This document shows positions 33,943-35,476 of a stretch of DNA of 39,769 bases, one piece after another. Position 1 is the stretch's first letter. Each line of letters begins with the position of its first letter. A model generated the notes under the pieces. It searched no databases. It was not told where the DNA came from and was given only the letters and a program-made list of their open reading frames with translations. The position numbers were made by a program, and so were the translations under genes. Source of the DNA: a virus (taxonomy: Duplodnaviria > Heunggongvirae > Uroviricota > Caudoviricetes); IMG/VR virus record IMGVR_UViG_2541047701_000005, positions 1 to 39,769 of that record. One strand, 5' to 3'.

Positions 33943-34650
33943 ATGGATTTGAATAAATTCAATGAGCCATTCAGCCCTGAAGATATCGAATGGCGAATAC
34001 AGCAAAGCGGTAAAACACGCGATGGCAAAGTGTGGGCTATGGTGCTGGCTTATGTCACGAACCGGGCAATCATGAAACGCCTGGACGATGTTTGCGGCAA
34101 AGCAGGATGGCGCAATGAATACCGCGATATTCCCAACAACGGCGGCGTTGAATGCGGCATATCAATAAAGATTGATTCCGAATGGGTAACCAAATGGGAT
34201 GCTGCTGAAAACACGCAGGTAGAAGCCGTCAAAGGTGGTCGTTCCGGTGCAATGAAGCGCGCTGCCGTTCAGTGGGGAATCGGTCGGTATCTGTATAACC
34301 TTGAGGAAGGTTTCGCACAAACATCTATCGATAAAAAGCAGGGATGGCACAGGGCAAAACTGAAGGATGGAACAGGATTTTACTGGCTCCCTCCATCGCT
34401 GCCGGGATGGGCAATCCCAGCATCAGATAACAAACCATCACCAGAAAATACCAACCAGAAATCTCCATCGGTTGACTGCGAACAAATCCTGAAAGACTTC
34501 AGCGATTATGCGTCAACAGAAACTGACAAGAAAAAACTCATCGCGCGTTATCAGCATGACTGGCAATTAATGGCTGGCAACGAGGAGGCGCAGGCTAAAT
34601 GCGTTCAGGTAATGAACATCAGAGTTAACGAACTAAAACAGGCGGCATAA
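33943..34650 (+). CDS. Single-strand annealing protein (Rad52/Sak-like recombinase)
   Basis: 235 aa; EDIEWRIQQSGK...VLAYVTNRAIMKRLDDVCGKAGWRNEY is reminiscent of phage Rad52-family annealases; position upstream of ssb in the early-left recombination module. Confidence 0.6.
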   Translation: MDLNKFNEPFSPEDIEWRIQQSGKTRDGKVWAMVLAYVTNRAIMKRLDDVCGKAGWRNEYRDIPNNGGVECGISIKIDSEWVTKWDAAENTQVEAVKGGRSGAMKRAAVQWGIGRYLYNLEEGFAQTSIDKKQGWHRAKLKDGTGFYWLPPSLPGWAIPASDNKPSPENTNQKSPSVDCEQILKDFSDYASTETDKKKLIARYQHDWQLMAGNEEAQAKCVQVMNIRVNELKQAA

Positions 34651-35166
34651 ATGGGAAGTAGAGGCGTAAATAAGGTGATCATTATTGGTCGCCTTGGGCA
34701 TGATCCAGAAATCAGATATTCACCATCAGGAACGGCATTTGCAAACCTTACAGTTGCTACGTCAGAACAATGGCGTGATAAGCAAACTGGAGAGCAAAAG
34801 GAGCAGACGGAGTGGCACCGTGTGGTAATGAGCGGGAAACTGGCAGAAATTGCCAGCGAATATCTGCGAAAAGGCTCTGAGGTTTATCTTGAAGGAAAAT
34901 TGCGGACAAGAAAATGGCAGGATCAAAGCGGACAGGATCGGTTCACTACCGAAGTTATCGTGGGCGTTGGTGGAACCATGCAAATGCTTGGTGGCAAGCA
35001 AGGAATCAATGAACAGTCTTCACCTCAGCGAAATAACGGTCAGCAACAAAAACAGCAGCCTCAGAAGCAGGTAAATCACAGCGAACCACCTATGGAGTTT
35101 GACGACGATATACCTTTTGCGCCAGTAACCCTCCCCTTCCCTCGTCACGCTATTCACGCAATTTAA
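34651..35166 (+). CDS. ssb: Single-stranded DNA-binding protein SSB, with a 15-residue extension after the DDDIPF motif
   Basis: OB-fold N-terminus ([35 protein letters not shown]), Gln/Gly-rich linker, EFDDDIPF followed by [15 protein letters not shown] before the stop. Confidence 0.85.
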
Positions 35167-35179
35167 TCAGGAGAAAATC

Positions 35180-35476
35180 ATGCCAGCGCCTCTGTATGGT
35201 GCGGACGACGCGCGCCGCTGTTCCGGCAATTCCGTATTGGAGGTGCTGGAAAATATCAAAAACAATTTCGATGCATTTCTTACTCTGCCACCAGAAACAA
35301 AAGCAGAACGGATGTACCGACGCGATATACAACTCGCGCTAAAACAGGAGAAGGACCGAACAAACGAAACAGCAATGAGACCGTTGCGAAAAGCGACAAT
35401 AGACAAATTCCCTGAATATATCGACCCGCGCCTGCGTAATTACCGCTCACGCTATGGCGCTATCAGTAATGACTGA
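35180..35476 (+). CDS. Abc2-like protein (possible anti-RecBCD function)
   Basis: 98 aa (similar to my recollection of P22 Abc2 length), directly downstream of the annealase/SSB genes, AGGAG RBS; assignment by position and size only. Confidence 0.35.

Follow-up and report, generated by a model that had tools for sequence, protein, structure and literature searches.

The window, the whole stretch of 39,769 nt considered here, is as a unit a P22-like mosaic phage genome, and its ssb gene is placed in a lambdoid recombination module. The gene lies between a gene for a Rad52/Rad22-family single-strand annealing protein and abc2, which encodes anti-RecBCD protein 2. The ssb annotation is also given in the near-identical phage ECP1 and in E. 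coli RefSeq genomes. The features of the locus are listed below.

33943..34650, plus strand: gene upstream of ssb for the Rad52/Rad22-family single-strand annealing protein, 235 aa (Pfam PF04098, E = 9.4e-26)
34651..35166, plus strand: ssb, ATG start, 171 codons and TAA (open reading frame list, Pfam, structure alignment)
34666..34965, plus strand: OB-fold DNA-binding and tetramerisation domain, residues 6-105 (Pfam PF00436, E = 2.1e-38)
34987..35085, plus strand: Gln-rich linker (Gln/Pro-rich, low-complexity), about residues 113-145, variable among relatives, with few invariant columns in a 23-protein alignment
35086..35118, plus strand: conserved acidic tip, residues 146-156, with P146, P147, M148, F150, D152, P155 and F156 invariant in the 23-protein alignment
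35101-35118, plus strand: DDDIPF, residues 151-156, read directly from the sequence
35119..35163, plus strand: 15-codon extension, family consensus [AS][PQ][VIL][TG]LPF[PQ]RH[ATS][IVM][HY][ASV][IVL]
35164..35166, plus strand: TAA stop, common to extended ssb alleles and, in HNH-containing phages, to the HNH ORF
35180..35476, plus strand: abc2, downstream of ssb, 98 aa (Pfam PF11043, E = 1e-37)

The TAA of the annealing gene abuts the ssb ATG (TAAATG, 34648-34653), which suggests translational coupling of the two genes. This Rad52-family protein is labelled 'Erf-like' in several phage records. Other extended alleles have a DnaQ-like exonuclease gene or another gene downstream, so the tail stays with ssb whatever comes next.

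The window protein carries an OB-fold core, a disordered linker and a DDDIPF motif, as bacterial-type SSBs do. The free alpha-carboxylate on the last Phe is missing, since 15 residues follow F156, and likewise in 166 fetched loci. The core matches the E. coli SSB structures 1eqq and 4mz9 with E = 3.4e-63. Solved E. coli-type SSBs align with E values from 3e-63 to 4e-64, and the alignment stops at F156, which corresponds to the chains' own ...DDDIPF end; the window tip is matched to the C-terminal ...PPMDFDDDIPF of the solved protein. The first-pass annotation had described a 15-residue extension at 35101-35166, past a DDDIPF motif that normally forms the free C-terminus. These coordinates are exact, the 15 codons between tip and TAA are real, and the solved chains do end at the motif.

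Compared with bacterial SSBs (PF00436), the window protein shares the OB-fold core, the low-complexity linker and the PPM[DE]FDDDIPF tip. It differs in that the tip is internal, with 15 conserved residues after the Phe, and in that the linker is short and Gln-rich. AlphaFold2 (AF2) gives pLDDT below 50 over residues 106-171; the model of the extended SSB has a mean pLDDT of 50 and a tail below 40, and gives nothing on tail conformation. No second copy of the tail motif occurs in any plausible ORF of the window. A separate observation concerns residues 60-61 (34828-34833), which are Met-Ser or x-Ser in the window SSB and most extended relatives and Leu-Phe in E. coli SSB, where Phe60 is a known ssDNA-contacting aromatic. 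Some Klebsiella-type extended SSBs keep the host-like LF core.

The tip/tail junction and its HNH cassette

The main structural fact lay beyond the reach of the first-pass annotation: the tip/tail junction is an HNH insertion site, and the HNH product shares the same 14 C-terminal residues. Two further features of the locus belong here.

35118..35119, strand unassigned: tip/tail junction, the empty HNH site (two-piece BLAST, Sf6 and Huey annotation and sequence, census)
35089..35118, plus strand: 30-nt divergent patch, carrying all of the approximately 10 nearly fixed differences between HNH-less and HNH alleles

The BLAST match to this region of the window splits in two around an insert of about 450 nt in Sf6, IME10, N7 and others. 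The Sf6-type and Huey-type insert is in frame and measures 444 nt, made up of a stop codon, a spacer and an HNH ORF lacking a stop of its own. In Sf6, the SSB (gp27) ends ...NFDDSDIPF at its stop, and gene 26 ('endonuclease') starts nine bases on in the same frame; its last 14 codons and TAA are those of the window SSB. Huey carries an endonuclease homologue, 48% identical, in the same place behind another SSB core, and its final 14 residues are again the same ones. In three HNH copies the sequence is ...PDEA-PVTL, which extends the stretch common to HNH and SSB to 15 codons.

On this comparison of sequences, a mobile HNH cassette inserts exactly at the tip/tail junction, and the window holds the HNH-less, extended allele. 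Where the cassette is present, the reading frames indicate that the SSB is cut to a canonical, free ...DIPF end and that the HNH gene borrows 14 tail codons and the ssb stop. Among closest relatives the dimorphism is strict: ssb is either extended without HNH or canonical with HNH.

The tail is not native to the HNH endonuclease. It lies outside the PHROG 2340 profile, which spans residues 1-143 of the 159-aa Sf6 gp26, and outside the predicted fold (AF2 pLDDT of about 98 for the fold and about 50 for the tail). HNH homologues are conserved as far as ...PIYP[DE][ED], and their C-termini beyond differ by locus. In locus L210 a 2-nt indel makes the HNH protein read ...PREGSITPYPSLATQYTHSK up to its stop, and the former frame still encodes PFPRHSIHAL followed by a stop. 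With a tail foreign to it, the HNH ORF is left without its own stop and continues into host sequence.

An allele-frequency differentiation scan set 27 HNH-containing against 15 extended alleles, both with abc2 context. Outside the 30-nt patch, the other 440 nt of ssb and 365 nt downstream are undifferentiated. Because the fixed differences are confined to the last 30 nt, the mobile unit comprises the recoded tip as well as the stop, spacer and HNH ORF. The patch is a candidate region for recognition by the endonuclease or for immunity to it.

Free-standing HNH (His-Me finger) homing endonuclease genes are known from phages, for example the T4 mob genes and the I-HmuI-type genes of SPO1 and SP82. 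The Sf6/Huey insert resembles them in several respects: it is present or absent at one precise site in otherwise near-identical genomes, is flanked by a short divergent patch, is sporadically distributed (the Sf6-type insert occurs in 99 of 5,426 E. coli genomes), is tied to the same conserved target gene in unrelated phages, and includes degenerate, decaying copies. It is unlike them in lying inside the 3' end of a host ORF, in supplying a stop that truncates the SSB by 15 residues and in ending in host codons. The insert is a putative homing endonuclease cassette. HNH homologues directly behind genes with SSB-type tips in a Vibrio phage, a Pectobacterium phage and Cronobacter-type prophages suggest that tip-coding DNA is the putative target of this HNH family. 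A 2025 survey treats such HNH genes as possible nucleases of recombination modules (PMC12315714).

Inactivating damage to the HNH gene itself takes the form of the otherwise invariant HHCDY motif changed to HQCDY in three loci and a stop at Q10 in one (L146, L154, L155, L161). Two proteins (P0014, P0011) are SSB::HNH deletion fusions, with SSB residues 1-114 joined to the C-terminal half of HNH. Chimeric ORFs among P0014, P0011, P0024 and P0053 include an HNH tail frameshifted into the exonuclease gene and an HNH N-terminus with an exonuclease C-terminus; together they indicate ongoing deletion and decay around the cassette.

Several other loci merit description in their own right. In Vibrio phage 252E42.2 (L010, 872-1420 and 1489-1926), ssb reads ...PPSDFDDD-RS and a stop, and then, in frame, DIPF and a stop. 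The tip is broken by a 9-nt stop-containing insert, CGGTCTTAG, immediately 5' of an Sf6-type HNH homologue; given the stop in this insert, the SSB there would be without IPF. In Pectobacterium phage DU_PP_I (L009), positions 269-1486 encode a 405-aa 'hypothetical protein' ending ...DVDFDLDIPF at its stop. An HNH homologue at 1486-1926 overlaps this gene with its start (ATGA) and ends ...NNDPVY without a tail. The 405-aa product is probably an ssDNA-binding protein that has escaped annotation, and its gene has a member of this endonuclease family at the 3' end. Salmonella phage 103203_sal5 (L004, 1972-2532) and ES18 carry a Pfam HNH_3 domain (E = 1.7e-13) downstream of a canonical ssb (...DDEIPF and stop), so the ssb 3' end hosts at least two unrelated HNH gene families. 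On the E. coli EJN001 chromosome (L352, 1504-2005), a 480-nt HNH ORF in the 500-nt gap from ssb to the anti-RecBCD gene is uncalled by RefSeq/PGAP. In the sampled rows of the E. coli insert search, 'ssb' is the sole annotation listed under the insert. In nine IMG/VR loci (L220, L223, L228, L237, L247, L249, L272, L277, L280), a conserved element ...CACCTCACGGAGGCGGGTTAACCACACCCGC... follows some 40-70 nt after a canonical ssb stop and could be a structured RNA or a regulatory site.

Distribution of the tail and selection upon it

The first-pass annotation had proposed a comparison with SSBs of related prophages and had named the same extension being widespread and functional in related phage SSBs as a finding that would refute its reading. 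Widespread it is, and under purifying selection. ECP1 encodes the same 171-aa protein, and the SSBs of HK75, mEp235, epsilon34 and CP-1639, whose cores reach only about 73% DNA identity, have these same 15 residues at their ends; in this set ssb is followed by abc2 or by a DnaQ-like exonuclease gene. Overall, at least three divergent SSB cores bear a tail of constant 15 aa, and the phages and prophages concerned come from Escherichia, Salmonella, Klebsiella, Citrobacter, Enterobacter and related genera.

An unbiased sample was obtained by gathering relatives through the SSB core only, without reference to the tail. Among the 80 closest IMG/VR relatives found by this core search, about 40, or roughly half, are extended without HNH, and about 38 end ...NFDDSDIPF at a stop that precedes an HNH gene; the remaining two end ...DDEIPF and are followed by other DNA. 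A third, quite different core (MAINTITVSG...) is extended in about 23 of 80 relatives, always by 15 aa, in at least five different downstream contexts. Its tail variants have [A/T/S]IH[A/S/V][I/V/L] or [V/L] endings and APITL... or SPVTL... starts.

Searches by sequence pattern broaden this picture. The back-translated tail pattern matched at least 119 IMG/VR contigs, and in at least 92 of them the tail belongs to an SSB. Of 5,426 complete E. coli genomes, 263 match a 51-nt probe with the junction at its centre, and the gene is annotated throughout as plain ssb. A protein search recovered 171-aa extended SSBs throughout Klebsiella and also in Citrobacter, Enterobacter and Salmonella, with one cluster of 1,030 members. 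A 40-aa tail query of proteins gave 11 matches, all partial proteins. When the degenerate LPFPRHxIH pattern was run as DNA on species-representative genomes, most matches were due to chance, roughly a dozen from enterobacteria were genuine and two had the look of contamination; in these genomes extended ssb was also found in Atlantibacter, Kluyvera, Pseudescherichia and Buttiauxella. Loci assigned to 'Chryseobacterium sp. 18061' (L346) and 'MAG: Actinomycetes bacterium' (L335) contain E. coli-type extended ssb or Sf6-type HNH sequences, and these non-enterobacterial assignments most likely reflect contamination or mis-binning.

The tail DNA resolves into 27 nucleotide haplotypes that translate into only a few conservative peptide variants. 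A read-through of 15 codons is not improbable by length alone, so the case for non-randomness rests on recurrence and conservation. Selection was examined in 67 loci with 22 haplotypes, all of them recovered independently of the tail. Counted along a minimum-spanning network, 43.8 changes are synonymous (on 12.4 sites) and 18.2 nonsynonymous (on 32.6 sites), which corresponds to a tail omega of 0.157 (binomial p = 1.4e-12). Variable sites at codon positions 1, 2 and 3 number 8, 3 and 13. The 22 haplotypes encode 10 peptides in the ssb frame, against 20-22 in the other two frames; neither of the latter is conserved, and most +1-frame translations contain stops. P158, L161, P162, F163, R165, H166 and I168 are invariant, each with two to four synonymous codons except F163, for which all 22 haplotypes use the single codon TTC. 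In the 23-protein alignment, T160-H166 (TLPFPRH) is invariant, with conservation equal to that of the tip, and the linker is not conserved.

Stop-gain alleles add a natural control. In eight loci TAA stands in place of the first tail codon, so that the SSB ends ...DDDAPF or ...DDDTPF; the remnants behind it measure 42, 43, 45, 46 or 47 nt instead of 48 and carry radical replacements, though they are still recognisable. In translated tails the number of indels is zero. Synonymous excess, frame specificity and decay behind a stop tie the constraint to translation as part of the SSB. Where the HNH gene is present, the tail codons are translated in that same frame, and the HNH protein could in principle account for some of the constraint, a point against the explanation preferred below; this source is disfavoured because of the L210 frame, the divergent HNH C-termini and the decay after stop gain. 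Judged by these patterns, the 15 residues are a genuine, translated and evolutionarily maintained C-terminal module of a large family of temperate-phage SSBs in Enterobacteriaceae.

Possible functions and origins of the tail

In published work, partner docking is lost once the SSB C-terminus is blocked. RecO Arg132 anchors the carboxyl end of SSB-Ct (PMC3152348), and an SSB-GFP C-terminal fusion retains normal ssDNA binding, does not detectably bind ExoI and has a dominant-negative effect when supplied at high copy on a plasmid (Dubiel et al. 2020, PMC7293020). This fusion is the best experimental analogue of a capped tip, since its tip C-terminus is blocked as in the window SSB. Its cap, however, is an artificial folded domain of 27 kDa, whereas that of the window SSB is a natural, selected 15-residue peptide with an invariant motif.

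From this literature, altered interaction specificity, one of the two options in the first-pass annotation, emerges as the most plausible function of the tail. Partners would dock the SSB tip through the terminal Phe and its free alpha-carboxylate, and the tail should prevent or weaken such canonical docking. The host SSB-interacting proteins affected would be ExoI, RecQ, RecO, PriA and others, with ssDNA binding left intact. Capped SSB, alone or in tetramers mixed with host SSB, would then keep the host SSB interactome away from the phage ssDNA that it coats. Mixed tetramers may form, as the core is close to host SSB and in some extended alleles is nearly host-identical. The invariant TLPFPRH would probably serve as an alternative docking motif for another partner, and HNH insertion would incidentally return the SSB to canonical form. 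The tail thus probably masks the tip and may add a new docking motif.

Taken as a whole, a selected tail module with an HNH cassette at its junction, acting through tip masking and alternative docking, is the explanation we favour, at somewhat better than even confidence. Further considerations weigh against it. Sf6-like phages with an HNH-truncated SSB are common and evidently viable, which makes the tail dispensable in at least some backgrounds. A flexible 15-residue peptide also obstructs far less than GFP does, and DDDIPF in its internal position may still be bound by some partners. A more far-reaching version, which we put forward tentatively, as one piece and as less likely than not, is a 'capped tip' family: an SSB invisible to host partners, possibly poisoning host SSB tetramers and redirected through TLPFPRH, with HNH toggling it between capped and canonical states across phage populations. 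The redirected partner would be a phage recombination protein, an anti-RecBCD protein or the host clamp. No linkage to a partner emerged from the neighbouring genes, as tailed SSBs accompany annealing proteins of the Rad52-like and the ERF type alike, and the gene after them may be abc2, an exonuclease gene or another.

A precedent for a phage SSB working with a phage partner comes from HK620. Hutinet et al. (2018, PMC5928155) report that single-strand annealing by Sak4 is stimulated by the cognate SSB (HkaK, 'SSB-2'). This lambdoid-phage SSB occupies the same position in the recombination module as the window SSB. HkaK is not homologous to bacterial SSB (PMC12315714), and it lacks the DDDIPF-plus-tail arrangement of the window protein.

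A tolerated appendage is the alternative that survives best, although we regard it as unlikely. The tail would then be mildly constrained, for instance by stability, solubility or avoidance of proteolysis, with partner binding unchanged because DDDIPF works internally or no partners are needed. The coexistence at similar frequency of canonical phages with HNH and extended phages fits this, as do the lack of a partner association and a tail predicted as disordered or uncertain. Yet seven consecutive invariant residues, TLPFPRH, conserved at the level of the tip within a disordered region, look like a binding motif, and the literature cited above indicates that the free C-terminus matters (PMC3152348, PMC7293020).

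The tail could also be a functionless scar: what remains of an HNH gene's 3' end after a deletion joined it in frame to ssb. Such an origin would account for the identity of the last 14 residues with the C-termini of Sf6 gp26 and the Huey endonuclease, for the three copies with ...PDEA-PVTL, and for tail DNA that hardly varies across E. coli-type alleles with SSB cores at only about 73% identity; true ssb-HNH deletion fusions do exist (P0014, P0011). We nevertheless consider it improbable. The tail lies outside the HNH profile and fold, HNH homologues elsewhere end differently, and L210 keeps the tail out of the HNH frame. Purifying selection acts in lineages that mostly lack HNH, and the tail decays once a stop separates it from the SSB. 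In addition, about 10 substitutions and one codon immediately 5' of the junction separate HNH-less from HNH alleles, so simple deletion does not yield the extended allele.

These observations bear on the direction of evolution. At the ssb locus, the favoured order suggested by the alleles makes the extended form the older state and the HNH cassette an insertion. This order is preferred because the tail is selected in HNH-free lineages and is independent of the HNH fold, because identical junctions occur on different SSB cores, as site-specific insertion predicts, and because some HNH-less alleles bear 'cassette-type' tips (NFDDEIPF-APV... in CP-1639, L217 and L218; NFDDSDIPF-APV... in P0195). 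Two other proposals were considered and rejected. Had the extended allele come from simple deletion between short direct repeats (gacga), IPF would have been lost at the junction, and many substitutions lie beside it. The string 'DEE-PVT-LPF' in the HNH C-terminus was considered as a decayed SSB tip, and no homologues ending in a tip were found. The tail itself could have arisen, to give one example, by ancient read-through into the 3' untranslated region.

As a specific, speculative form of the docking idea, PVTLPF might be a putative beta-clamp-binding type of sequence that tethers the phage SSB to host DnaN, for which the chance is as small as for the scar. The beta-clamp-binding consensus is QL[SD]LF, or QLxLxL in the hexamer class, as in QLSLPL of Hda. 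The fit extends to the hydrophobic residues at positions 2, 4 and 6 and to the Pro at position 5. L, P and F never vary, changes within positions 1-3 are conservative (V/I/L, T/G), and one natural variant, AQVTLPF, restores the Gln. The resemblance nonetheless covers six residues, the signature Gln is normally absent, and the invariant PRH is left unexplained.

Conservation of the 45 nt as DNA or RNA, as an endonuclease target or a downstream translation signal with incidental coding, is very improbable. The stretch is an endonuclease insertion site and lies directly 5' of the abc2 ribosome-binding site. Third codon positions, however, vary at 13 of 15 sites as against 3 of 15 second positions, and the tail stays with ssb while the gene downstream varies among abc2, exonuclease and others. 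Finally, a sequencing or assembly error or a recent stop loss private to the window genome, the other option of the first-pass annotation, has nothing beyond the unusual motif position in its favour and can practically be dismissed, given nine independent loci with an identical 45-nt haplotype, 166 fetched loci with a 15-aa tail of this family, and the tail in cultured, sequenced phages and in 263 complete E. coli genomes.

Implications for phage SSBs and their annotation

The sole prior trace of the extension is a single line in the GenBank entry for Sf6 (NC_005344; Casjens et al. 2004), which states that gp26 has 14 contiguous amino acids identical to 14 in E. coli SSB; no description of an SSB extension was found in the searched literature. 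That record notes the identity of the same 14 residues and does not read them as an SSB extension, a selected module or an insertion site. The SSBs of Sf6 and ES18 'have not been studied experimentally' (PMC12315714). What appears new here is an SSB whose tip bears a selected cap, together with the HNH insertion polymorphism to which this cap is coupled.

For annotation, the finding concerns an HNH ORF left uncalled in at least one RefSeq E. coli record examined and extended SSBs labelled as ordinary ssb. It also concerns lambdoid recombination modules, in which the HNH gene has so far been counted as a possible module nuclease, and it is relevant to the choice of cognate SSBs in phage-derived recombineering systems.

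More broadly, the SSB tip with its free carboxylate is regarded as the universal docking handle of a bacterial genome-maintenance hub and as a target for drugs and for the design of recombineering. Extended phage SSBs form a large, natural and selected class in which this handle is buried. Capped and uncapped alleles, one cassette apart in otherwise identical phages, offer a natural experiment on tip accessibility in vivo, one that also bears on how phages insulate recombination intermediates from host proteins.
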